From: Chitinophaga pinensis
GTDB lineage: Bacteria > Bacteroidota > Bacteroidia > SXHM01
Assembly (NCBI GenBank): GCA_945870105.1
Contig: CAMBRL010000003.1
Span: 36-64,035, forward strand
Length of the DNA: 64,000 bases
Reading direction: 5' to 3'
Under the pieces are notes generated by a model, which was not told the origin of the DNA, made no database searches, and worked only from the letters and a program-made list of their open reading frames with translations. Shown here in pieces: positions 2,658 to 44,010 of this stretch (positions are counted from its first letter, which is position 1; the number at the start of each line of letters is the position of its first letter). Both the position numbers and the translations under genes were made by a program.

Positions 2658-2735
2658 GCCACAGATTACACAGATTAACACTAATTGTGTGACGAAAAAT
2701 TTTAAACTACTTTTTTAATCTGTGTAATCTGTGGT
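2658..2735. repeat. GCCACAGATTACACAGATT-type palindromic repeat; other copies at 29371-29400 (half) and 43956-44018
   Basis: ACAGATT sub-repeats with inverted partner AATCTGTGTAATCTGTGG. Confidence 0.8.
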
Positions 2736-22520: not shown

Positions 22521-23432
22521 TTAGTAGCGTATTACAGCGGCCACGGCATAGTGGTCACTCAGATCTTTTCTGGTTCTGGTTTTATCCCAGGCCTGTTGAA
22601 TAACTTCAATCGTGCGGTCAATCCATGCCGAGCATTTCCCGTTTTCTTTTATAAGAATATAATCCAGCAACTGCGGAGTACGGTTAGCATCTGCCTCAAA
22701 CAAATCGTTCTCTCTTCCGCCCCAGGTTCCAAGGTCTTTCAGCCACGATTTTGTTTTACGAGGAGCACAATCTTCAGCATTTAAAAGTGTAAGCATATCG
22801 CAGTATCCGGCTTCCTCAGGCATTGTATTCAAATCGCCAACAATAAACTGTGGCACATTTTCTTTTTCATAAGGCTTCAGCAATTTTTCAGCAATATCCT
22901 GAAATTGGTCTTTGCGCACTTCCGGATAATTCTCCGCCTGTAAATGGGTTCCTATCACCTGAAAGATTTTTCCGTTTTTTGTCAGCTCAACAAGTATCGC
23001 GCCTTTTTTAGATATGCAGTCAGCAATCTTGCAGGTGTTAAATTCAATAGTGGCAACCGAAGTAAATTCCAGCTTGCTCAAAATCCAGACACCGCTGTTC
23101 AATTTAAGAAAACCTCCATCGCCCGGCCCTGTCGAAAAAGGAAACTTCTCTTTCAAACCTTCCCACAAAATTTCTCTTGCCTTTTTTTCAAACGCTTCCT
23201 GAAAAACAATCACATCATACGCCTCATTTTTCAGTTGTTCTGCAATCGCCTCAGCCCGTTCCAGTTGTCCTATTTTAGGAAAAAACACGTTGGGTAACAT
23301 ATAGATATTCCAGGAGAGAATGCGAAGCTCGTCAGCTCCCGTTGTAACAACGGAAGGGCTTTGTGCCTGCGCAAAAACAGAACACAATACAAAGCAGCAG
23401 ATGCTTATGTATTTTAGAAACAGATTTTTCAT
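22521..23432 (-). CDS. Sphingomyelin phosphodiesterase-like EEP hydrolase
   Basis: LSWNI, FQEAF, KGA, THLQA, GDLN, LDYI, SDHY. Confidence 0.85.
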   Translation of the reverse strand: MKNLFLKYISICCFVLCSVFAQAQSPSVVTTGADELRILSWNIYMLPNVFFPKIGQLERAEAIAEQLKNEAYDVIVFQEAFEKKAREILWEGLKEKFPFSTGPGDGGFLKLNSGVWILSKLEFTSVATIEFNTCKIADCISKKGAILVELTKNGKIFQVIGTHLQAENYPEVRKDQFQDIAEKLLKPYEKENVPQFIVGDLNTMPEEAGYCDMLTLLNAEDCAPRKTKSWLKDLGTWGGRENDLFEADANRTPQLLDYILIKENGKCSAWIDRTIEVIQQAWDKTRTRKDLSDHYAVAAVIRY

Positions 23433-23476
23433 GGAGATATACTACCGTGCAAAAATACTAAGAAAAAAGGGCAAAT

Positions 23477-23518
23477 AAAAAAATCCCTCTTGCAGCAACC
23501 CGACTGCAAGAGGGATTT
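23477..23518 (-). terminator. Intrinsic terminator downstream of the 328-aa gene
   Basis: 15-bp stem AAATCCCTCTTGCAG/CTGCAAGAGGGATTT with U-tract on minus strand. Confidence 0.75.
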
Positions 23519-23555
23519 ATGCAATGCCAACAAGAAAGGCACTGCGTTTTTTGCC

Positions 23556-24542
23556 TTAAATCACCTTCACCTCATAGCTGATAACCACACCGTTCGGGTT
23601 ATAGCAGTTTACAAAAGGTTTTTCGCCTCCCAATTGAGCCCATGTAAATGTATCCGCATTGGCGTTGGTAACATAAACACCCGAACCGCTGAAACCTTCC
23701 AGCTCGCTGTTTGCCGAAAACAACCAGAAGCCCGGACCATCTGTACAGTCTGCTTTAAACGCGCTGTCAGTTTCTAAATCCTCTTCTTTAAACAAATTCA
23801 ATGTGTTTCCGCTGTTAAGCGTTCCTGTTTTTAATAGTCCGCTTTCGCCCGGTGTACCAACCAACTCAAGCAAATTCACCAATACAAATTGCTTTTTCAC
23901 CGCAGCATTATTTTTAAAATACGCTACACCATCATCCATCATCAGGCGCATCTTTTCATAAATCAGATCATTCGCATCGCTTTTGGTTTGTGTGCCTGTT
24001 TGCGCGCCTTCTTCTGCTTGTAAAAAAGCTAAGTGTGCAGTATCAAAATCATTCTTGATACCCAGAAACTCAGCAGCAAAACCTGCAGGCATATTATCCG
24101 GTGTTCCGGTTTCTAAGTTTATGGCAAGCACAGCACTGTTATCCAATATAAACTGATAAGCATTGCTCATCATCAGTGCAATCATATCCCAGTCACTCTC
24201 TCCGCCAAGGTCATACTGGTCTTTCCCGGCTGCTTCCGTTTTGGGTTTGCGCTCTGCTTTCACATAAGCCGATACAATATACCGCTCCAGATAATTCCAG
24301 TATTCGCGGCATATTCCCGCTTTCACCTTCAGTTGTATGCGCAGCGTTTCGTGCGCATCATCCCGCGCCTGTTCGTCAGGCAGGTTTTCGGCAGCATCTA
24401 TTTCTGCCATGCGTGCAGCTATATAAGCAGCGTTGTAAAATCCTTTGCGTGCAGCAAACACAGCAACATTGTTTAGGCAGTTCTGCCATGCTAAGCGGCA
24501 CACTGTATAAAGCACCGCCATTGAAAAATTATAGTTACTCAT
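23556..24542 (-). CDS. Uncharacterised protein (helical N-domain plus beta-rich C-domain), homolog of 40602-41330
   Basis: 328-aa ORF with its own terminator; manual alignment to the 242-aa ORF. Confidence 0.8.
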   Translation of the reverse strand: MSNYNFSMAVLYTVCRLAWQNCLNNVAVFAARKGFYNAAYIAARMAEIDAAENLPDEQARDDAHETLRIQLKVKAGICREYWNYLERYIVSAYVKAERKPKTEAAGKDQYDLGGESDWDMIALMMSNAYQFILDNSAVLAINLETGTPDNMPAGFAAEFLGIKNDFDTAHLAFLQAEEGAQTGTQTKSDANDLIYEKMRLMMDDGVAYFKNNAAVKKQFVLVNLLELVGTPGESGLLKTGTLNSGNTLNLFKEEDLETDSAFKADCTDGPGFWLFSANSELEGFSGSGVYVTNANADTFTWAQLGGEKPFVNCYNPNGVVISYEVKVI

Positions 24543-24650
24543 GATTTCTACTTTTTGTGTCAGTCAGCCCCTGACTATGCAGGGCTTTTTGCCTCCCAAC
24601 TTGTTAATACTAATTCTCAATTATGTGCGTAGAAATCATTTCATTTTTTC

Positions 24651-24765
24651 ATTCATTATTCGTTATTCGACATTCTATTGTTCGACATTCGTTATTCAAC
24701 ATTCAGTATTCAACATTTTCTTTTTTCTATCTTCTATTTGCTATTTTCCATCCTCCAACTTCCAC
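24651..24765. repeat. Degenerate heptamer tandem repeats (ATTCnnn, then TTTCTAT/CTTCCAn)
   Basis: attcatt attcgtt attcgac attctat ... attcaac attcagt attcaac; then cttctat ttgctat tttccat cctccaa cttccac. Confidence 0.8.
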
Positions 24766-24854
24766 CCCAAAGTTCCCCCAAAAACCACCACCCTCCATCA
24801 CATCTTTTCCATTACAACTTTTCCATTAGTAGAAAACCACTAATCAAAAACCCG

Positions 24855-25112
24855 TCACAAAATCCTCCTCCTTTTAAACCTTCCCTTAGTATCAAAGCCA
24901 TTTTCCACCGCTACTGCTGCCAGCCTTGCAGCATTATTAACTTGCAAACTCTTAAACAAAATCCCCATCTCCGTATTAAGCGTACTCTCAGCAATACCAA
25001 GCTTTTCAGCTATTTCCTTGCGTTCAAAACCCAATATCACCAACGCTATTATCTTAGCGTTATGCAGGGTTATGCTTGTTTTTCCGAATTTCAGATACTC
25101 AATTGTTTTCAT
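24855..25112 (-). CDS. Stand-alone LuxR/GerE-type HTH protein
   Basis: LGFERKEIAEKLGIAESTL...FKSLQVNNAARL. Confidence 0.75.
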   Translation of the reverse strand: MKTIEYLKFGKTSITLHNAKIIALVILGFERKEIAEKLGIAESTLNTEMGILFKSLQVNNAARLAAVAVENGFDTKGRFKRRRIL

Positions 25113-25237
25113 GATGTTTTAAATTTAAAAAGGTTCGTTATTCTGTTTTCTGCACAAAACGGTAAAACCCGTTCTTAATCCGATAACGAAAAACAACACA
25201 GATTTATTGTGTTAACAAATGTTAAAAAATCATTGTC

Positions 25238-25275
25238 GTAGGGGCGGGGCTCGCCCCCGCCCATCCTGTCCCTAC
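25238..25275. repeat. GTAG-type REP-like palindrome
   Basis: GTAGGGGCGGGGCTCGCCCCCGCCC...CCCTAC. Confidence 0.6.
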
Positions 25276-25315
25276 CCTTTCCATTACCAAACATCATACA
25301 TAGTATCTTTGCCCT

Positions 25316-25504
25316 ATGGACATCCACTCCAGCCAAACCCGCAGCTACAACATGTCCCGCATCAAAGGCAAAGACACTAAGCCCGAAATGCTCGTGCGCA
25401 GGTTTTTATTTGCAAAAGCCTCCCGCTACAAACTGCACGATAAAACTCTGCCCGGTAAACCGGTTATTGTTTTGCCGAAATAGAAAACTGTTATGTTTGT
25501 TCAC
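25316..25504 (+). pseudogene. vsr: Very-short-patch repair endonuclease pseudogene
   Basis: MDIHSSQTRSYNMSRIKGKDTKPEMLVRR...LPGKPVIVLPK*KTVMFVH; in-frame TAG at 25481, PD changed to PV, truncated before GCFWHGH. Confidence 0.85.
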
Positions 25505-25520
25505 AGTTTAAATTTCAAAT

Positions 25521-25925
25521 ATGATTGATGTTACTTGCGCAATTATCCTAAAAGAGAATAAAATCTTAGTAACTCAACGAAGCGAGAAGATGAAATTACC
25601 ATTGAAGTGGGAATTTCCTGGCGGTAAAGTTGAAGAAAATGAAACAGAAGAAAATTGTTTGTTAAGAGAAATAAAAGAGGAGCTTAATCTAGAAATTGGA
25701 CTATTAGAGAAATTAGAATCTAAATGTTTTGATTACGAAACATTTTCAATCCGACTTATTCCTTTTGTTGCAATATATGTATCGGGTGAAATTATTTTAG
25801 CTGAACACAAAGATTATAAATGGTTAGAAAAGGAAGAATTAAAATCTTTGGATTGGGCTTTAGCTGATATTCCTGTATTGGAAGAGTTCTTAAAATTAAA
25901 TTATGACACAACAAGGACTCTATGA
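25521..25925 (+). CDS. MutT-like NUDIX (d)NTP pyrophosphohydrolase
   Basis: WEFPGGKVEENETEENCLLREIKEEL Nudix box. Confidence 0.92.
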   Translation: MIDVTCAIILKENKILVTQRSEKMKLPLKWEFPGGKVEENETEENCLLREIKEELNLEIGLLEKLESKCFDYETFSIRLIPFVAIYVSGEIILAEHKDYKWLEKEELKSLDWALADIPVLEEFLKLNYDTTRTL

Positions 25926-28900
25926 GCAACTAATTAATAAATTGATTTCTTCCAAACTGAATGATTTGGATAGAAACACTTTTTATATAAAGGAAAGTGT
26001 AATTGATAAAAATGAAGCTTCAAGAGTTTTATCACAATATCTAGTTGAAGTAATTCGATTTGCACTTAATCTTGTTTCTGGAGATGACAGTATCGAGAAA
26101 CAAATAGAGATTTCAAACAAAATAATTCTTCTTTTAAGAACTGAATTAAAGGAAGAAGATTTTGATGAAGATTTGATTTCAACAGAAGCAAAGATTCTTT
26201 CAGCAATTTTTTCAAAAATTGATGCGAGGTTTTCTGACTTTGAAAAACATCTCAAAGAAATAACTCCCTACACTAGATTATCTCAAAGCGAATTATTTAC
26301 AGGCAATAATGCAGGTATTTCACTTGAAAGTGAAATTAGAAAAGAGATTCTTTCTTCAGATAAAATCAACTTCCTTGTTTCATTTATCAAATTTTCAGGG
26401 ATAAGAATTTTTGAGAAGGAGTTATTTGAGTTTACTGAAAGAGGTGGGCAATTACAAGTAATTACTACTTCCTACATGGGGGCTACTGATTTGAAAGCAG
26501 TTGAATATTTATCAGGTTTGAAGAATACTGAAATCAAAGTTTCTTACAATACTGACAATGAAAGACTACATGCAAAAGCATATTTATTTTTCAGGAACAC
26601 GGGTTTTCATACTGGCTATATAGGCTCGTCAAACATTTCTCGTTCTGCATTGACAAATGGATTGGAATGGAATATTAAAGTAACCACAAAAGAGGTAGGA
26701 CACATTATTGATAAATTTCAAAAAACATTTGAAACTTATTGGGAGGATAAAGAATTTGAGTCGTTTGATAAAATTCTTCATACAGAAAAGCTGAGAGTAG
26801 CTCTGAAGAAAGAGAGAACGCATGAAAGAAATAATCCTGCTGCTTACTTTGATATTAAACCATTCCCGTTTCAGTCAGAAATTTTAGAAAAATTGGAAAC
26901 GGAAAGAATAGTCCACAACCGTTTTAGAAATTTAATTGTCGCTGCAACAGGAACTGGCAAGACAGTAATTTCAGCGTTTGACTTCAAAAAAATAAAAAAT
27001 AAAAACTCATCTGCCAAACTTTTGTTTGTTGCACACCGAAAAGAAATATTGCAACAGGCACAAGCAACATTTCAGGGAATATTGAAAGACAATAACTTTG
27101 GAGAGTTATGGGTTGATGGGATTGAACCCGAAAAATATGATTGTGTATTTGCATCAGTTCAAACATTAAATAACAGAATTGATTCGCTGACACTTTCAGA
27201 ATCATTTTATGATTTCATCATTGTTGATGAAGTTCATCACATTACTGCTTCAAGTTATCGTCCGATTTTAAATCGGTTCAAACCAAAAATTCTTTTGGGC
27301 TTGACAGCAACACCTGAAAGATTGGATGGAGAAAATATTCTTAAAGATTTCTGTAATACGATTGCTGCTGAAATTAGATTACCAGAAGCATTAAACAGAA
27401 AATTGCTTTGTCCTTTTCAGTATTTCGGAATAACAGATAGTATAGATTTATCAAATGTAACTTGGCAAAACGGAAAATATTTACCAAGTGAACTGACAAG
27501 AATTTATACTCAAAATGATAAACGAATTGGCGAAATTATTTCTAACCTGAACAAATATCTGAACGATATAAACAATGTAAGAGCTCTTTGTTTTTGTGTA
27601 ACCCAAGAGCATGCTCAATACATGGCAGAAAAATTTTCACTTGCTGGATTGAAAGCAGATTATTTAGTCAGCTCAAGAAATGAGTTGAGAGATGAATTAA
27701 GACGAAAGTTTTTAAACAAGGAAATTAATTACCTTTTTGTGGTTGACATTTTTAATGAGGGAATTGATATACCGGATATCGATACAGTTTTATTTCTTAG
27801 GCCTACTGAAAGTTTGACTGTTTTTCTACAACAACTTGGTAGAGGCTTAAGGTTAGCTGAAGGCAAAGAGTGTTTAACTGTTTTAGATTTCGTTGGGAAC
27901 TCAAGACCAGAATATGATTTCGAAGGGAAATTCAGAGCATTAGTAGGCAAAACAAACACTTCAATTGAAAAAGAGATTGAAGATAATTTTCCTCACCTGC
28001 CATTAGGCTGCTCAATTATTTTAGAGAAAAAAGCAAAAGAATATATTCTTCAAAATATTCATAATGCAACTTCATTTAATATAAATCAATTAATTGTTAA
28101 AATTCGTAATTATAAATATCAAACATCCTTACCCCTTACTCTTAAAAACTTTTCTAATTTTTACAATATTCCTCTACAATTAATTTACAAAAAAGGTAAT
28201 TGGAAAAGAATATGTGTGATGGCTGAGCAAATGGAAAATTATCCTGAAACAAATGAGAAAGAAATTTATAGAGCCATCAGGAAGAAGTGGTTTTCGTGTA
28301 ATTCAAATTCATATTTCCTGTTTATTTTATCTATAGCAAAGAATAATTTCAATATTATTTTCAACCAGTTTACTGAAGAAGAACAGTCGATGTGTTTAAT
28401 GCTTCATTATGACGTTTGGCAAAATGCTGGAGGATTTAATTCTCTGGAAGAAAGCATAAAAAAGATTGGAGTTAATAAAGTATTAGTAGATGAAATAATT
28501 GAAGTTTTAGAAATTTTGATAGACCGTATAGATTTTAAAGAAGTAAATATTCAATTGCCCTATAAGCAACCATTAAGGCTTCATGCTCGATATACAAGGG
28601 ATCAGATATTAGTAGCCTTTAAAATGTCAACTTTTGAAACAGCATCTTCAAATAGAATAGGAGGAGGTGTTGCAGAGAATAAAAAAATAAATACCGAAAT
28701 TCTTTTTGTTGATTTAATCAAATCTGAAGAGGATTTTTCTCCAACAACCATGTATAACGATTTTGCTATTAGTGAAACGTTGTTTCATTGGCAGTCACAA
28801 AATCAAACTAGAAATGATAAGGGGAAAGGTCTTACTTATATAAACCATAAAAGTTTAGGGAAACGCATTTTACTCTTTGTCCGTGAAAGAACAAAAGATG

Positions 28901-29049
28901 AATATGGCAACACTATGGGATATATTTTTATTGGTGATGGTAATTTAAAAGAATATTATGGTTCAAAGCCAATGAGTATCAAATGGGAATTGAGTGAGCC
29001 AATGCCTCACTATTTTTGGAAAGATATTGCTAAGATGTCAGTCGGTTAA
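25903..29049 (+). CDS. PLD-nuclease / SF2 helicase / DUF3427 protein, candidate anti-phage restriction factor
   Basis: RLHAKAY...GSSN; ATGTGKT, DEVHH, LTATPER, QQLGRGLR; C-terminal YNDFAIS..FHWQSQ; AT-rich. Confidence 0.88.
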   Translation: MTQQGLYEQLINKLISSKLNDLDRNTFYIKESVIDKNEASRVLSQYLVEVIRFALNLVSGDDSIEKQIEISNKIILLLRTELKEEDFDEDLISTEAKILSAIFSKIDARFSDFEKHLKEITPYTRLSQSELFTGNNAGISLESEIRKEILSSDKINFLVSFIKFSGIRIFEKELFEFTERGGQLQVITTSYMGATDLKAVEYLSGLKNTEIKVSYNTDNERLHAKAYLFFRNTGFHTGYIGSSNISRSALTNGLEWNIKVTTKEVGHIIDKFQKTFETYWEDKEFESFDKILHTEKLRVALKKERTHERNNPAAYFDIKPFPFQSEILEKLETERIVHNRFRNLIVAATGTGKTVISAFDFKKIKNKNSSAKLLFVAHRKEILQQAQATFQGILKDNNFGELWVDGIEPEKYDCVFASVQTLNNRIDSLTLSESFYDFIIVDEVHHITASSYRPILNRFKPKILLGLTATPERLDGENILKDFCNTIAAEIRLPEALNRKLLCPFQYFGITDSIDLSNVTWQNGKYLPSELTRIYTQNDKRIGEIISNLNKYLNDINNVRALCFCVTQEHAQYMAEKFSLAGLKADYLVSSRNELRDELRRKFLNKEINYLFVVDIFNEGIDIPDIDTVLFLRPTESLTVFLQQLGRGLRLAEGKECLTVLDFVGNSRPEYDFEGKFRALVGKTNTSIEKEIEDNFPHLPLGCSIILEKKAKEYILQNIHNATSFNINQLIVKIRNYKYQTSLPLTLKNFSNFYNIPLQLIYKKGNWKRICVMAEQMENYPETNEKEIYRAIRKKWFSCNSNSYFLFILSIAKNNFNIIFNQFTEEEQSMCLMLHYDVWQNAGGFNSLEESIKKIGVNKVLVDEIIEVLEILIDRIDFKEVNIQLPYKQPLRLHARYTRDQILVAFKMSTFETASSNRIGGGVAENKKINTEILFVDLIKSEEDFSPTTMYNDFAISETLFHWQSQNQTRNDKGKGLTYINHKSLGKRILLFVRERTKDEYGNTMGYIFIGDGNLKEYYGSKPMSIKWELSEPMPHYFWKDIAKMSVG

Positions 29050-29053
29050 TACC

Positions 29054-29288
29054 CCTGTTGAGCTTAGAGTCCCGCTACGCTCTGTTTAACAGGCGTCCCG
29101 CCTTTAATTATTTTTAGCCGTCAACCCATCTACGCGTGCATCGCCTGTGGGCGGCTGTCCACGCTGAGTGCGAACCACAAGTTTTGCGGCTGCTAAGCGC
29201 AGGCATGTGCGACAAGCAAAAGCTTATGGTTGGTCAGCGTGGTGCCTTTTCTTTTGTTACTTTTCTTTGGGCAAGCAAAGAAAAGTAA
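29054..29288. other. Highly structured non-coding element (nested hairpins)
   Basis: Stems 29054-63/29084-93, 29159-67/29234-42 with inner stem, 29257-69/29276-88. Confidence 0.6.
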
Positions 29289-29409
29289 AGATAATTCAGC
29301 CGCGTTCCATCCAACCTTCTCCTGAGCTCCTCCCTGCTCCCTCCTTCTTCCTCTGTGTAACAACTCCACGTTCTGTGTTAATCTGTGTAATCTGTGGCAA
29401 AACTCACCT

Positions 29410-29724
29410 TCCCCTAACCCTTCCCCATCAATCCCTAAACCCCTAACACCAATCCCTAAACCCATAGTGACAATTCCTCTACCCATAATGATAACCCCTC
29501 AACCCATAGTGACAATTCCGTAAACCATAGTATCAATTCCTAAATCGTTTGCAATCCTTCCTCAAAAGTCCGCAACATATCCTCAAAAGTCAGTGCAGTT
29601 TCCTAAACCCTTCCCAACTATTCCTAAACAGTCCAAGCCTATTCCTAAATTCTCCAAACCCATTCCTAAACTGTTTTAAACAGTTCCTAAAATGCCAAAA
29701 ACTGTCCCTAAGTTCTCCCCACAC
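29410..29724. repeat. 21-bp-period array 1 (15 units, core ATTCCTAAA)
   Basis: CC(T/G) core at 29413 plus 21n through 29707 with no register slip. Confidence 0.9.
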
Positions 29725-29834
29725 ATAAACCTTTCCATCCTGCCCGTTTCGGTCTGACCAGTCCCGCTAAAAACCAAAAATTTGTTTTCAATTAATTAAA
29801 TCATAATATTGCAGTAACTAATTCATAATACGCA

Positions 29835-32800
29835 ATGAAAAAAATCTTACTCACACTGCTTACTCTTTGCAGCATTTTGCCCACTGTTTCAGCCCAGCAA
29901 CCTTGGGAAAACAACGGTAAGCTTGACGATTTCAGCGAACTCTCCAGCACCATCACCCTCCCGATGGAAATGCCCGATGGCGTTAAATTAATGACAGATA
30001 TCTATTTACCCATCACCCAGGATTGTCTTATGGTAGTCATCAGCGACCAACCCATTTTTGGTATGGAAGTGCTCCCGATTGAATTCATCCGCAAAGGCAC
30101 ACAACTTATTCTGTATGATTCAACCTACACCATCAGCGGTGGCGATACCATTGGTACAGCAAATGCTAATCCCTACAAACTGCCCATGATTCTGCAGCGC
30201 ACCCCTTACGACAAAGGAGATGGTAATGATCCCGTTGGTTCATTGGTTTCTATTTTGGGCTATGCCTTTTCTGTTCAGGATATGCGCGGACGTTATGCCT
30301 CTGAAGGTGTTTACTTTCCGCTGCAAAGCGATGGTTGGGAAAAAAATACCTACCACGCAAACTGGCAGCACGTCTTGGACGAAACAGATCCAAGCGACCC
30401 TAAAAACGGTAACCGTCACGAAGATGGATACAACACCATCAAATACATTGTAAACGATTTCAAACGCGATTACGATTACGATTTGGATGGCATTGCAGAT
30501 ACCAACGACTTTGTAGTAAACGGTTGGATTGCCATGTTTGGTGGCTCCGCACTTGGCTACAATCAATACCAGGCAGCAGCAGCTCATAAAATTGACCCTT
30601 CTGCTCCCGGATTAAAAGCACTTCTTCCTATTGTTGCCCCTAACGAATTCTTCAAAAGCACCGGTTTTCAGAACGGGGTGTTGCGCGACCGTTTGGTTAC
30701 AGGTTGGTTGAAAGGACAAATCTTTACCGGCACCGATGATGACCTCATGGATATTGACAACGAGATGCAGAATAACATTCATACTTCTAAAGATTACGAT
30801 CTTCCGAAATCAATGTATGTAAACAACATCTTGCAGAGCTATCAGGAAAATAAATTTGATGCAGCAGCACTTGCCATTGACCACTTTGTTTCTATGCGTT
30901 ACGAAGATCAGAACGGAAACATTGGCCCATGCGGATACTATCCAAACTCGGTAGGCAGAAAAGATATGGATGCCAGCCGCGGAATGATTGATTCGGCAGG
31001 TAATTGCAAAATGGAACAACCCGGTGATGTACTTGGTCAGGACATCTTCAGCCGATACAGTAACATGGACGTGCCTGCTTACCACTTAACCGGATGGTGG
31101 GATATTTTCATTGACGGACAAATTGAAACATGGGCATTCATGCGCAAGTTCATTGACCCTGCACATGGTAACAACAAAAAACAAAAACTGGTAATCGGTC
31201 CTTGGGCTCACCAAACCATAGGTTCAAAAACAACAGGTGACAGAACCTATCCTGATAACATCAGTGACCTGCTTGGTTTTGACTTTGATGAAGTTTCTGC
31301 TACCAACACTCCTATCAGCAAAATCTTAACATCAGAAGTTATCGCATGGTTCCGTTACAACCTCAACTACCAGAACGATAATTACCTGGGCGAACCTAAA
31401 TGTGTTATTCCTGAAAATACAACCTGGCAAAATGTTGTTGCCAACGGTTTAATTAAAGTGCGTGTTCCTTCTGAGGATTATGTGATGAGCTTTAATGAGC
31501 TGCTCGGCTTATTGAATGGAACCTCTGGTCTCACTAATATTAAAGCCGAGATAAATATTGGGGGAAATGTTCAGGATACCGTGTTCGATTTCCCTGCATT
31601 TGGAGACCCTGTTATTCCGGGCTTAGACTCGGGAGCTATCGTAACTATCCCTTACCGCGATTTTTCGGATGAAACAGATGTTGCCAACGTGCGTTTTTAT
31701 GTAATAGGCCCAAATGATGATGGCATGCCTGAAAATGAAGGCAAAGGATGCTACTGGTTTAAATCAGACACTTTTCCTCTTCCCGAATCAGCAATTGAAA
31801 GACACGACTGGTTCCTGCATGCTGACGGAACATTGAACGAAACAGCACCGGTAGAAGATGAAGGCGTGAACATTTTTGTACACGACCCCGATGATCCTAT
31901 TTATGGTATCGGAGGTTCTAACATGATTGTTCGCACACCTGATGGAGAACGTACTTCACAAGGTCAGTTCAATATCAAAGACGAGCGTTATGCCTCTTAT
32001 ACTATAGACCGTCAGGGCGTATTGCAATACAGCTCTGAACCGGTAGTGGATTCAATGTGCGTGATTGGTTTCCCGCACGTAAGATTGTATGCTAAAACCA
32101 ATCCCGGTGGTGCTGCAGAAGGCGACCCAACCGACACCGATTTCATGGTTCGTGTAATTGACGTTTATCCTGACGGACACGAGTATTTTGTAATTGAAGG
32201 TTGTGTAAACGCACGCGCAAGAGATTATGTGCGCAATCTGGTTGATCATCCTGAAATGGATTTGAACTTCCCTTATCCTAATGACCAGACTCCTTTCACT
32301 AACATTGAAGCAGGAAAAATTTACGAATACGTTTTCCCGATGCCTCCTATTGCTTACACATTCGGACACGGTCACAAAATGAAAATTCTGATTTCAAGTA
32401 GTATTTATACACGTTTTCAGGTTAATCCTAATATTCCTATTGAACCGGGTGATTTCTTCCGCAGAAAGCCAGGGGACGGTCGCAGCTATCGTTTTCAGGG
32501 AGTGGATATGTTTCCTCGTGTAGCTGTTCAGCGTGTGGCTTTTGCACCGGAATACCCAACACATATCAACCTGCCTATTTACACACAGAACTACACCAAT
32601 GTTGATAAGCCAACTGTTGTAAAAGACGAATTGAAGGCTCTTGTATTTCCTAACCCTACTGATGATCTTGTAAACATTTACATGTCAAAAGCAGGCGAGT
32701 ACCAGGTTGATATTATCAGCATTTCAGGAAACATTATTGCAAGCTCTTCTTCCTTCAGCGATAAACTTGCTGTTGATGTAAGCAGCCTGAGTGCAGGTAT

Positions 32801-32867
32801 TTATTTTGTAACTATCAATGATTTGAAAAACAATAACAAAATCACCAAAAAACTAAGCGTGAAGTAA
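29835..32867 (+). CDS. CocE/NonD-family serine hydrolase with T9SS sorting domain
   Basis: MPDGVKLMTDIYLP, RTPY, QDMRGRYASEG, GGSALG, GWWD, GPWAH; VFPNP CTD. Confidence 0.88.
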   Translation: MKKILLTLLTLCSILPTVSAQQPWENNGKLDDFSELSSTITLPMEMPDGVKLMTDIYLPITQDCLMVVISDQPIFGMEVLPIEFIRKGTQLILYDSTYTISGGDTIGTANANPYKLPMILQRTPYDKGDGNDPVGSLVSILGYAFSVQDMRGRYASEGVYFPLQSDGWEKNTYHANWQHVLDETDPSDPKNGNRHEDGYNTIKYIVNDFKRDYDYDLDGIADTNDFVVNGWIAMFGGSALGYNQYQAAAAHKIDPSAPGLKALLPIVAPNEFFKSTGFQNGVLRDRLVTGWLKGQIFTGTDDDLMDIDNEMQNNIHTSKDYDLPKSMYVNNILQSYQENKFDAAALAIDHFVSMRYEDQNGNIGPCGYYPNSVGRKDMDASRGMIDSAGNCKMEQPGDVLGQDIFSRYSNMDVPAYHLTGWWDIFIDGQIETWAFMRKFIDPAHGNNKKQKLVIGPWAHQTIGSKTTGDRTYPDNISDLLGFDFDEVSATNTPISKILTSEVIAWFRYNLNYQNDNYLGEPKCVIPENTTWQNVVANGLIKVRVPSEDYVMSFNELLGLLNGTSGLTNIKAEINIGGNVQDTVFDFPAFGDPVIPGLDSGAIVTIPYRDFSDETDVANVRFYVIGPNDDGMPENEGKGCYWFKSDTFPLPESAIERHDWFLHADGTLNETAPVEDEGVNIFVHDPDDPIYGIGGSNMIVRTPDGERTSQGQFNIKDERYASYTIDRQGVLQYSSEPVVDSMCVIGFPHVRLYAKTNPGGAAEGDPTDTDFMVRVIDVYPDGHEYFVIEGCVNARARDYVRNLVDHPEMDLNFPYPNDQTPFTNIEAGKIYEYVFPMPPIAYTFGHGHKMKILISSSIYTRFQVNPNIPIEPGDFFRRKPGDGRSYRFQGVDMFPRVAVQRVAFAPEYPTHINLPIYTQNYTNVDKPTVVKDELKALVFPNPTDDLVNIYMSKAGEYQVDIISISGNIIASSSSFSDKLAVDVSSLSAGIYFVTINDLKNNNKITKKLSVK

Positions 32868-39616: not shown

Positions 39617-40615
39617 ATGAAAATAACAACTACGGCTCGGTCTATTATAGTTTTAAATTTTTTCTTAGTAGCTCTTTCTTTAAGTGCGCAAGTTAATCTG
39701 GTGCCGAATCCGAGTTTTGAGGAATATACAAATTGTCCAGTTGGACCAAGTGAAATTTATAGAACAACTTTTTGGGAGCAACCAACAGAAGGTACTTGTG
39801 ATTATTTTAATGAATGTTGTGTTTCTTCTTTTCCGTTGATTGAACCCCCCTCTGTTGGAATTCCATATAATCAGTTGGGTATTCAAGCAGCAAGAACAGG
39901 GAGTGCTTATGCTGGCATTATTGTTCATGAAGACTATGACACGACTCATTTATACAGAGAGTATCTACAAGTTCGATTGATTAACCCAATGATAACAGGG
40001 AATCAATACTTAATTAAATTCTTTGTTTCATTGTCAGATTTTTCTTCAAAATTTTCAAATGGAATTGGAGCATATTTTTCAACAACACAAATTCAACAAT
40101 CAAATCATTTTCCATTTCCTTATACTCCGCAAATAAATGCTTCAGGAATGATTAATAATTATGAGGATTGGACTGAAATAACAGAAACTTTTACCCCGGA
40201 CTCGGCATTTGAATATCTTACAATTGGAAATTTTTATCAGCCATTTACCTATCTTCTTGATACTTTCACAGCACAAATAGATTCCTTTACTCTCCCATTG
40301 CCAATGATCTATTATTATATTGATGATGTTTCAGTAATATCATTAGACACAACATCTGGACTATCCGAAACAGAAAAACCAAAACTTAAGATCTTCCCCA
40401 ACCCTGCGAGCAACCAAGTTACTATTGAGCAGTTATCGGTAAGCGGTAATCAGTTGTCGGTTGAGGTTTATGATGCGCTTGGGCGGCTTGTCACCCTGAG
40501 CATAGTCGAAGGGCAAACATCAACCATTCCTTTAAACCTTTCAAAAGGTGTTTACCTGCTCAGGGTAAAAGAAAAAGAGGAAGTGGTGTTTTGGGAGAAG
40601 CTTATGGTGGAGTAA
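39617..40615 (+). CDS. T9SS cargo protein (NLVPNPSFE N-terminal domain)
   Basis: Signal peptide, NLVPNPSFE, REYLQ, IGNF, YYYIDDV, IFPNPA CTD; AT-rich. Confidence 0.82.
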   Translation: MKITTTARSIIVLNFFLVALSLSAQVNLVPNPSFEEYTNCPVGPSEIYRTTFWEQPTEGTCDYFNECCVSSFPLIEPPSVGIPYNQLGIQAARTGSAYAGIIVHEDYDTTHLYREYLQVRLINPMITGNQYLIKFFVSLSDFSSKFSNGIGAYFSTTQIQQSNHFPFPYTPQINASGMINNYEDWTEITETFTPDSAFEYLTIGNFYQPFTYLLDTFTAQIDSFTLPLPMIYYYIDDVSVISLDTTSGLSETEKPKLKIFPNPASNQVTIEQLSVSGNQLSVEVYDALGRLVTLSIVEGQTSTIPLNLSKGVYLLRVKEKEEVVFWEKLMVE

Positions 40616-41330
40616 CCTGGTTCTTTGTTTTTTCCGCTTTTGATTTTTCAGAGTTTTTACGGTATTGCCGTTGTTTTGCCTTGTTTTCTTCAAACGTTAT
40701 TTTTGAAGCTATATCAAGGTTTTTAATAATGGCCCAGATGTCGTTGAGTTTTTTAGTGCGGCCAGCTGTCATTTCCAGGCGGCTTATTTTTTTTGTTTCC
40801 TGTTCCAGGTTTAAATCGTTTAGCGTTTGGGCTGTGGTTTTTATATCCGTGATTTGCAGCGCTGAAAATCCGGCAGCTATCAGGGCAGTTCTGTAGGGTT
40901 CGGCATTGGCTTTTTCGTAGGTAACTTCCATGCTCTGCTGCATGCCTGTTTGGCTATAGCGGTTAGCGAGGTAAAGCGCATAGCCCATCAGTTCGCGCGC
41001 TTTTTTATTTTCGGGAAAAGCCAGCTGCGCATAACGGAAAAGCCGCAACATTTGCAGGCGGGCCGTGTGCATTTGCTTGTTTACAGCCTGAGTAGCCAAA
41101 CGCTGGTCGGTTTTTACTTCCTCATCTGAGGGGGCATCATCGGCATCGTTTATCTTTGCCAGAAAACCGGCAAGCCAGATGGCATCCATGGTAGGGAAAT
41201 CAAGGGTGAAAAGGGCAAGGTCGCCATCGATGCCGTTGGTGCCATAAAGAAGCGAATGTACTATTCGGGCCTGCTGTATCAGCAGTTCAGCAGGCTTGCG
41301 AAAGACCCTTTTACTTTGTTTTTTACCCAT
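40602..41330 (-). CDS. Uncharacterised helical protein, homolog of 23556-24542
   Basis: 242-aa ORF preceded by TATATTTG promoter; manual alignment to the 328-aa ORF. Confidence 0.8.
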   Translation of the reverse strand: MGKKQSKRVFRKPAELLIQQARIVHSLLYGTNGIDGDLALFTLDFPTMDAIWLAGFLAKINDADDAPSDEEVKTDQRLATQAVNKQMHTARLQMLRLFRYAQLAFPENKKARELMGYALYLANRYSQTGMQQSMEVTYEKANAEPYRTALIAAGFSALQITDIKTTAQTLNDLNLEQETKKISRLEMTAGRTKKLNDIWAIIKNLDIASKITFEENKAKQRQYRKNSEKSKAEKTKNQVTPP

Positions 41331-41361: not shown

Positions 41362-41400
41362 ATTCATTCAGATTTATTAACAGCATAGTCAGATTTATTT

Positions 41401-41590
41401 TATTCTTATTCTATAATTAATAATTCATTATTTGATTATATATATTCGTATTATAATTTAAAATATTCCTAATTATATTTATACTTATTCTTATTATAAT
41501 ATATAGTATTCGTAAAATGATTTACTATATTCCTGATATGATATTATAAATACTCAAAACATTTTACTTCATTCCTATACTAATTATACA
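41401..41590. repeat. 21-bp-period array 2 (9 units, core TATTCNTA)
   Basis: ATTC at 41402, 41423, 41444, 41465, 41487, 41508, 41529, (ATAC 41550), 41571. Confidence 0.8.
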
Positions 41591-43929: not shown

Positions 43930-44010
43930 AATCGTAAATCAAAAATAAGGATATAGCCACAGATTACACAGATTAACACAGATTTTTTTCTTCTGTGCAA
44001 ATTAGTGTAA

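Follow-up and report, generated by a model that had tools for sequence, protein, structure and literature searches.

A selectively maintained, non-coding 21-bp array upstream of a secreted peptidase gene in Chitinophaga pinensis and its possible role as a protein docking platform

A 64,000-nucleotide stretch of a Chitinophaga pinensis genome assembly (GCA_945870105.1, contig CAMBRL010000003.1, positions 36 to 64,035 of the forward strand; hereafter the window) carries, at window positions 29410-29724 on the + strand, an array of 15 head-to-tail units, each exactly 21 bp long. This array is real and non-coding, and it is maintained by selection. The reading that we tentatively favour, with slightly less than an even chance of being right, is that the array acts at the level of DNA as a same-face docking array for a direct-repeat-binding protein.

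As such a docking array, it would present 15 copies of a short asymmetric site (an invariant CCT-A within ATTCCTAAA) spaced two helical turns apart; because 21 bp amounts to two turns of duplex DNA, all cores would lie on the same side of the helix. This platform could be bound head-to-tail, and probably cooperatively, by a direct-repeat-binding protein, for which LytTR, winged-helix response-regulator or BldC-like proteins are candidates. A copy of the whole module would have entered the spacer immediately upstream of the promoter that serves a secreted S15 peptidase gene, where it would separate that promoter from an inserted restriction-enzyme island and likely organise or insulate the upstream promoter region. 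Protein binding, the type of protein and the effect on the promoter are what we infer from the analyses described here.

Results

Structure and composition of the array

The initial annotation, made from the sequence alone, had proposed 15 units in perfect 21-bp register, and this was borne out: CC(T/G) stands at all 15 proposed starts, from 29413 to 29707 in steps of 21 (CCT in 14 units and CCG in one), and 15 of the 21 CC[TG] occurrences of the region are in phase. The core is (A/G)TTCCTAAA, occupying columns 1-9 of the unit, and the other 12 bases (columns 10-21) are variable. Autocorrelation, suggested at the time as a check, yielded a self-match of 0.633 at lag 21, 0.586 at lag 42 and 0.571 at lag 63, compared to a best shuffled self-match that never exceeded 0.417 at lags 5-59 in 500 dinucleotide-preserving shuffles. 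Tandem Repeats Finder, also suggested, returned a period of 21, but only for the pieces 29429-29544 and 29600-29671 and not for the whole array, because the units are merely about 63% alike. The sub-families of neighbouring units (CCCATAGTGACA, CTCAAAAGTC) and the example units quoted in the annotation are present, and the plus strand is as G-poor as had been stated, with 22 G vs 110 C in 315 bases.

In 124 units from eight related arrays, information is concentrated in columns 1-9 (C4 in 120/124 units, C5 in 123/124, T6 in 118/124 and A8 in 118/124), and columns 10-21 carry little. No inverted repeat was found inside the array, whose unit is devoid of dyad symmetry, and no terminal inverted repeats were found around it. 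A search of Rfam identified no family for the array, or for the GC-rich element upstream of it, at the gathering score or at E<=1, other than a chance miRNA match with an E of 0.92. A CRISPR array was considered and rejected, since the core spans 9 bp and the 12-bp remainders are mutually related, whereas CRISPR needs repeats of at least 23 nt and unrelated spacers (Cas genes were not searched for). The first three units resemble plant-type telomere repeats (CCCTAAA; window 29410-29465, - strand), and the strand opposite to them carries GGG/GGGG runs with short loops that could form a G-quadruplex. One DNA contig ending at these units ran into pure CCCTAAA repeats, probably those of another organism.

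Constraint on the core and the register

The arrays found at the S15 peptidase gene in the window genome (designated G000) and in its relatives G006 and G003 are orthologous, sharing the same junctions and comprising 15 units each. Those of G000 and G003 align unit by unit with no indel in 315 bp. As a neutral proxy for this pair we used the four-fold sites of the adjacent peptidase gene, which differ at a rate of 0.446 (n=379). Core columns 1-9 diverge by 0.148, with columns 4-6 unchanged (0/45 sites), and non-core columns 10-21 diverge by 0.361, about four fifths of the neutral proxy. The proposal of conserved length and selection on spacing is hence upheld by the gap-free alignment of 15 units in both genomes, with the core held. 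The proposed drift of the approximately 12 non-core bases held in part: their rate is near-neutral, but the remainders are not free, each of their positions being passed on from copy to copy. The initially suggested local duplication with later divergence is reflected in remainders common to neighbouring units, and paralogous arrays have their unit sub-types in the same order. Homogenisation between units can be dismissed as the cause of core conservation, because it would have erased the unit-specific remainders too.

A DNA contig of another population covers 29356-30301, crossing the array without gaps and showing 28 differences in 946 bases. In the closer pair, G000 and G006, the pattern is reversed (core 0.074 vs remainder 0.039), with few changes, located in units 4-5. 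The comparison of G000 with G003 and the gap-free contig indicate that register and core are under selection, with a remainder that appears near-neutral.

Coding potential

The periodicity of 21 bp is also that of a heptad-repeat gene, encoding xxLGIxx on the - strand or IPKxxxx on the + strand, and a remnant or live gene of this kind was evaluated; we deem it highly improbable. As the initial annotation had reported, both frames hold stops within the array (two in the IPK frame and four in the LGI frame). Across the eight arrays the LGI frame contains 4, 3, 0, 1, 2, 0, 3 and 3 stops, and it is fully open only in two G003 arrays, at the S15 and FG-GAP sites. An intact heptad open reading frame (ORF) in relatives, which the annotation had named as the mark of a decayed gene, formally exists as a 109-aa ORF with an ATG start at the orthologous G003 site, but it fails as a gene: it matches no Pfam family, and two open arrays among eight are what chance provides, because a set of 15 units sampled at random from the pool has a probability of P=0.128 of being open in this frame. 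When the G000 array is compared with that of G003, the first, second and third codon positions diverge by 0.343, 0.200 and 0.267, respectively, and since both candidate frames share third positions, neither shows a third-position excess. Furthermore, in all S15- and aminotransferase-site arrays, and likewise in the metagenome contig L431, the IPK frame is interrupted by a TAA within the CCGTAA unit, and the core is kept equally well in arrays with and without stops. Core columns are near-invariant whatever their codon position, and the constraint therefore acts on nucleotides.

Gain and loss of homologous arrays

Congeners carry homologous arrays upstream of unrelated genes; these have 15-17 units and keep one order of sub-types. 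Besides the S15 peptidase site (G000, G006 and G003), the array occurs at an aminotransferase gene in G003 and G002 and, in G003, at the genes for an FG-GAP protein and an MG2-domain protein and at one more site with no co-oriented gene downstream. G003 holds at least five family copies and G000 one clear and one degenerate copy; the metagenome contigs L431 and L389 contain further true members. All nine family copies are intergenic, and seven have a co-oriented gene 110-300 bp downstream.

The S15 site is devoid of the array in G004, G002 and G005 (loci L057, L058 and L012), where the peptidase gene and an Exo_endo_phos gene point away from each other across approximately 110 bp containing the same promoter. 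In the window, where the Exo_endo_phos gene occupies 22521-23432, a segment of approximately 6.3 kb (23440-29745) that is missing at the orthologous site of these three congeners has the array as its promoter-proximal end. It comprises two ORFs that match nothing in Pfam or PADLOC, a NUDIX gene, a restriction-enzyme gene, the GC-rich element and the array. The protein encoded by the NUDIX gene of this defence island (23440-29050) matches PADLOC PDC-S07 (8.2e-49), and a short ORF lies inside the island at ~25316-25483. The spacer between the OmpA and aminotransferase genes is 95 bp long in G000; in G003 it contains an array, beginning 2 bp past the OmpA stop codon, and a 150-bp tail. Of these two genomes, G003 alone has an array at the MG2 site. 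The distribution at the S15 site needs at least two events, because the G004 peptidase (92%) is closer to that of G000 than is that of G003 (89%). No tail is common to independent family sites, and neither of the two empty sites that were read contained a seed unit. These comparisons show that the array is gained and lost as a whole module.

The joint absence of island and array at the S15 and MG2 sites brings up the possibility that the array is the end or recombination platform of mobile defence islands, its repeats being recombinase arm-type sites carried with, or attracting, cargo. Mobile or defence genes adjoin four of the eight arrays upstream (the type IV restriction enzyme in the window, a tyrosine integrase 24 bp away in L024, an AbiC-like gene in L025 and an OLD/PtuA-like ATPase in L026), yet an integrase is present in just one of the eight stretches examined, the aminotransferase-site copy has no gene cargo, the left border of the window island has no matching repeat, and most arrays of the wider class described below flank ordinary genes. 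To our knowledge, moreover, sets of recombinase arm sites contain far fewer than 15-17 sites, and we regard this explanation as improbable.

Whole-array gain and loss at the S15, OmpA/aminotransferase and MG2 sites would also suit a selfish or nearly neutral minisatellite module, similar to the BrickBuilt element of Porphyromonas gingivalis, that spreads and expands by some duplicative process with a preference for 21-bp units, is tolerated in spacers, has no host function and conserves its core for its own propagation only. The empty sites without a seed unit speak for such a module, as do the clean absence from G000 of four of nine flank-mapped G003 arrays, the presence of arrays in every kind of spacer beside unrelated genes, and the coexistence of young and degenerate arrays. 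It is harder to reconcile with a core unchanged at 0/45 sites against a neutral rate of 0.446, free of indels, at an orthologous site that is vertically kept, or with variable remainders that persist where homogenisation would erase them. The array also has no terminal inverted repeats, no shared tail and no link to a transposase, and no reverse transcriptase linked to it was found. We therefore judge a selfish module rather unlikely.

A genome-wide class of 21/42-bp arrays

A self-match scan (scan window 126, threshold 0.6) of the complete G000 assembly (3.6 Mb in 214 contigs) detected 42 regions at lag 21 (11.3 kb), 58 at lag 42 (18.6 kb) and 11 at lag 41 (3.6 kb), with 0-9 regions, covering at most 2.7 kb, at every other lag from 9 to 45. 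Merging of the lag-21 and lag-42 regions resulted in 58 arrays, mostly 250-520 bp long and nearly all intergenic (for instance C1:13585-13984, C4:53027-53498, C6:41199-41592, C44:16044-16492, C94:6496-6996 and C121:5099-5619, by contig of G000). According to crude ORF calls, 25 lie in co-directional, 13 in divergent and 12 in convergent spacers, four inside long ORFs and four at contig ends. The genes next to 20 of the arrays are of every kind, and young, near-perfect arrays (C44, self-match 0.98) are found alongside old, degenerate ones. Cores are unrelated among the 33 intergenic 21-bp arrays compared as profiles, only that of C91 resembling the window array (0.74), and no motif common to all arrays was found. 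Inspection by eye revealed dyad cores with 0-3 bp centres in several of them; such centres appear suited to protein operators and too tight for RNA hairpins.

In 400 kb of G003, lag 21 had 14 regions and lag 42 had 17, compared to 0-3 at the ten other lags tried, and no lag-21 or lag-42 arrays were detected in G019 (140 kb) and G017 (26 kb), which belong to other families. Sequence flanking peptidase homologues at 77 Bacteroidia loci, 536 kb in all, contained four regions at lag 21 and five at lag 42, with none at other lags from 15 to 45 except one each at 28 and 35; three of the array loci (L089, L096 and L098) come from records holding the closest orthologues, and L153 is a 7-bp repeat. Nine G003 arrays have both flanks on a single G000 contig: three are shared, four differ cleanly in presence or absence (by ~400-470 bp in three cases, the fourth being larger and AT-rich) and two are unclear.

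The eleven 41-bp arrays (including C10:46105-46509, C83:15904-16318, C80:16432-16844, C86:6453-6750 and C9:1614-1891 of G000) are true 41-mers with dyad cores (e.g. CCGTAACGGTTACGG and TTGGGGTTTCCCCAA) and for this reason cannot be coding. They look like clusters of the repetitive extragenic palindrome (REP) or bacterial interspersed mosaic element (BIME) type, and the only Y1 (RAYT-like) transposase gene of the genome (C10:45774-45971) lies 134 bp from one of them.

Searches with patterns of spaced cores were extended to other sequence collections. The three-core pattern matched 15 of 400 genomes of the taxonomic class, and about as many matched the pattern read backwards; TTCCTAAA was accordingly rejected as a special word. 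A metagenome scan returned at least 119 loci, and the 80 examined included many 21-bp arrays with this core, for which the pattern itself selects. In viral contigs, the two-core pattern hit at least 119 loci, each with a single match among the matches listed, and the three-core pattern hit 66 loci, all of them either 7-bp repeats or uniform tandem repeats, most of the latter judged coding-like by eye. A phage origin of core or remainders was rejected on this basis, because none of these 66 loci combined a fixed core with varied remainders. In our literature searches we found no description of a 21/42-bp rule; the publications found on intergenic repeats of helical period deal with a 10-11-bp periodicity, and the main text of the SPADE tool paper reports heptamers and contains neither '21 bp' nor '21-bp'.

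The restriction of arrays with unrelated sequence to 21 and 41-43 bp, together with dyad cores with 0-3-bp centres and an indel-free register, points to double-stranded DNA as the level at which they operate. A broader proposition would be that non-coding arrays of unrelated sequence are built or kept in this genus only at two or four helical turns, over a total of ~250-520 bp, as a lineage-wide rule with a dedicated reader or writer; we put it forward as a rather doubtful conjecture.

The spacer, the promoter and the neighbouring genes

The array lies wholly within a 785-bp spacer between two + strand genes. The upstream gene (25903-29049) encodes a type IV methyl-directed restriction enzyme with PLD nuclease, helicase and DUF3427 domains in Pfam and a match to PADLOC mREase_IV (5.3e-228), and is low in G+C (0.22-0.39 vs 0.39-0.485 downstream). 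The product of the downstream gene (29835-32867) is an X-Pro dipeptidyl-peptidase of family S15 that carries a C-terminal sorting domain for type IX secretion (Peptidase_S15 1.6e-21, PepX_C 1.2e-19 and Por_Secre_tail 2.8e-13), which assigns the organism to the Bacteroidota.

The spacer opens with a GC-rich, strongly folding, leader-like multi-copy element (29052-29296, +). Its predicted fold (29085-29300) has an energy of -77.9 kcal/mol (z -3.4 vs shuffles). The element has two parts and includes a perfect 13-bp stem (29257-29288) and a long, compensated hairpin. This element has many copies in the genus and stands in the same orientation 113-351 bp upstream of five of the nine family arrays. 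It is often located upstream of C-rich arrays, also at C91:6250-6403, C15:5338-5593 and C1:13376-13427 of G000. A short dispersed repeat, TCTGTGTTAATCTGTGTAATCTGTGG (of the CACAGATTA type), follows on the + strand at 29372-29402, 8 bp ahead of the array, and has dozens of matches in this and other genera. Short CACAGATTA / TAATCTGTG repeats of this sort occur at window positions 2660-2677, 2716-2733, 29372-29402 and 43958-43984 and in dozens of spacers of several genera; at 2660-2733 two repeat pairs face each other between convergent genes in what looks like a terminator.

Downstream of the array, a short tail and junction (29725-29780, +) were delimited by comparing sequences by eye (L057, L058, L012 and L021). 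The first ~20 bp of the tail are common only to array-bearing orthologues, and from ~GTTTCG (29746) onward the sequence is recognisable in array-less congeners too. Promoters of the Bacteroidota have a -33 TTTG element and a spacer optimum of 19 bp. A putative sigma-A promoter of the peptidase gene, at 29781-29811 (+), is composed of TTTG (29781-29784), a 19-bp spacer and TAATATTG (29804-29811), the latter deviating by one mismatch from TAnnTTTG, the -7 box placed at -12 to -5 in the parts available to us of a report on Bacteroidota promoters (PMC9723704). This putative promoter starts 56 bp past the end of the array, ends 23 bp before the ATG, and is conserved in G003 and in the three array-less congeners.

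The stretch was matched in lake and freshwater metagenome runs. Among RNA contigs assembled from two metatranscriptome runs, one begins at 29839 and none covers the array, although uncovered parts prove nothing.

A site for Rho utilisation (rut) is a C-rich, G-poor and unstructured segment of RNA. A + strand transcript of the array would have these properties (110 C vs 22 G; -15.6 kcal/mol over 315 nt, z -0.65) and the genome encodes Rho, so that the + strand tract might load Rho or another RNA-binding factor and terminate or insulate transcription from the island before it reaches the peptidase promoter. The array ranks fifth among the 127 most C-over-G regions, and five of the top seven are 21-bp arrays; in co-directional spacers, the sense GC skew is below -0.3 in 7 of 25 arrays and above +0.3 in none, compared to 3.7% of 219 array-free spacers below -0.3. 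The positions of the G003 copy 2 bp past the OmpA stop and of the co-oriented genes downstream of seven of the nine copies are likewise those of such an element. Rho, however, requires neither a 21-nt period nor a fixed CCT-A core. Moreover, the upstream gene is divergent in five of the nine family copies (L020, L023, L024, L025 and L026), and there is therefore nothing to terminate in them; in L431 both neighbouring genes lie antisense to the C-rich strand. Dyad cores and an absence of skew characterise many arrays of the class, and periods of 21 and 42 fit duplex geometry. We consider a role at the RNA level quite unlikely.

Two further repeat tracts were observed in the window. A second, AT-rich array at 41365-41588, with a 21/43-bp period and a unit like ATATTCGTATTATAATTTAAA, lies just upstream of a 242-aa gene without Pfam match (40602-41330, -). 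At 24640-24830, 7/14-bp repeats (ATTCATTATTCAAC) are followed by a C/T-rich tract, in one of the most C-over-G regions of the genome (C3:24627-25101 of G000).

Genes linked to arrays elsewhere in the genome

Six array-flanking ORFs of ~225-250 aa without Pfam match were used as queries against their own genome and identified 11 loci (tblastn, E<=1e-4). Four of the six queries match one another by BLASTP, and the other two were grouped with them by eye on the basis of a similar C-terminal motif. Ten of these loci (C2:8450-9145, C27:28534-29235, C4:52246-52929, C20:18345-19019, C15:31205-31960, C23:21753-22433, C36:20378-21124, C57:646-1362, C1:87736-88404, C8:34832-35410 and C7:17090-17755 being the full set) have a 21/42-bp array directly upstream, the core of which differs from locus to locus, and two are divergent from Eco57I/MmeI-like restriction-modification genes. 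The window array does not adjoin a gene of this family, and all 51 database relatives are without a name. One structure model of a ~225-aa member (predicted local distance difference test score 87.7) combines a helical N-terminal part with an fn3 domain at the C-terminus. Nothing in this model points to a known DNA-binding fold.

Two LytTR-domain genes lie less than 100 bp from 21/42-bp arrays, C185:3191-3532 (array C185:3626-4025) and C1:88782-89342 on the - strand (array C1:88436-88683). Both are short and, judging by their length, have no receiver domain.

Discussion

Comparison with known systems

Plasmid centromeres and iterons, such as sopC of F (12 x 43 bp) and parC of R1, build nucleoprotein structures on ten or more phased sites. 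The window array resembles them in its tandem, helically phased units, at least ten in number, and differs in that no par or rep gene is near it, that it is chromosomal, and that dozens of differing arrays exist per genome. REP/BIME clusters are species-restricted intergenic repeat clusters associated with RAYT transposases. The 41-bp arrays, with their dyad cores and a Y1 transposase gene near one of them, are comparable; the window array, unlike them, has neither dyad symmetry nor a RAYT link, the sole Y1_Tnp gene being on another contig.

Boxes of the PhoB/OmpR type are direct-repeat operators. The accessible parts of two reports describe LytTR sites as repeats of 9-11 nt separated by 11-13 nt with no common consensus (PMC4847170) and BldC as forming head-to-tail multimers on direct repeats (PMC5859096). 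LytTR-, BldC- and PhoB-type operators share with the array short asymmetric repeats at whole-helical-turn spacing upstream of a promoter, and are bound directionally and cooperatively along one face; a 9-bp core with a 12-bp spacer would fit the architecture of LytTR sites. Such operators have two to a few repeats, in contrast to the 15-17 of the array, which has no adjacent cognate regulator and no isolated sites in the genome.

The class of phased arrays thus has a partial precedent, its closest described relative being BrickBuilt of P. gingivalis. The available portions of Klein et al. 2015 (PMC4596501) present BrickBuilt as a minisatellite miniature inverted-repeat transposable element of tandem imperfect 23-nt units, always intergenic, with 19 copies, leader and tail segments with small inverted-repeat ends, and promoter activity. 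On that description, common features are the occurrence in Bacteroidota, the spacerless head-to-tail imperfect units of ~20 nt with variable positions in their latter half, and the dispersal of intergenic copies beside unrelated genes, partly flanked by leader-like sequence. The two differ in unit length, 21 nt rather than 23 nt, as compared by description and not by sequence. Terminal inverted repeats and a common tail, as portrayed in those portions for BrickBuilt, are absent from the array, and the leader-like element is found at five of nine copies and at varying distance. Where the same source depicts one family, this genome has dozens of arrays of unrelated units sharing only the 21/42-bp period, and the window family is represented by one clear and one degenerate copy, with the number of 15 units kept between species.

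Evaluation of the docking-array reading

Several observations weigh against a same-face docking array. No reader protein was found, none of the eight LytTR genes of the genome adjoins the window array, and a duplex model gives no evident reason for the extreme strand asymmetry. The pair TTCCTAAA-N13-TTCCTAAA occurs nowhere else in this genome, and there is therefore no regulon of single sites. For the wider class, the 25:13:12 split between co-directional, divergent and convergent spacers is near random, so that a promoter role is not general, and since the cores are unrelated, sequence-specific reading would need many readers. Intrinsic curvature, as a further property of the duplex, was rejected: a wedge model, first-order, with Bolshoy-type parameters and an outcome that depends strongly on the assumed twist, calculated a net bend of 74 degrees (z -0.1 vs shuffles; rank 658 of 1274 windows).

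Implications

Array units of this type can be mis-called as heptad-repeat ORFs, and the arrays break assemblies of lake metagenomes. Beyond these practical aspects, bacterial spacers are usually seen as promoters, terminators and leftovers, and in this genome arrays with nothing but a geometric rule in common make up about 0.5% or more of the sequence. If the rule of two or four helical turns is true, it would imply either a DNA-organising protein aligned on phased sites or a ruler-like mechanism that generates arrays, and hence bacterial chromatin patterning or array genesis of an undescribed form. If a protein reads the arrays, they would constitute a new layer of promoter-upstream or chromosome organisation in the Bacteroidota; should a mechanism write them, non-coding DNA would have a new source.

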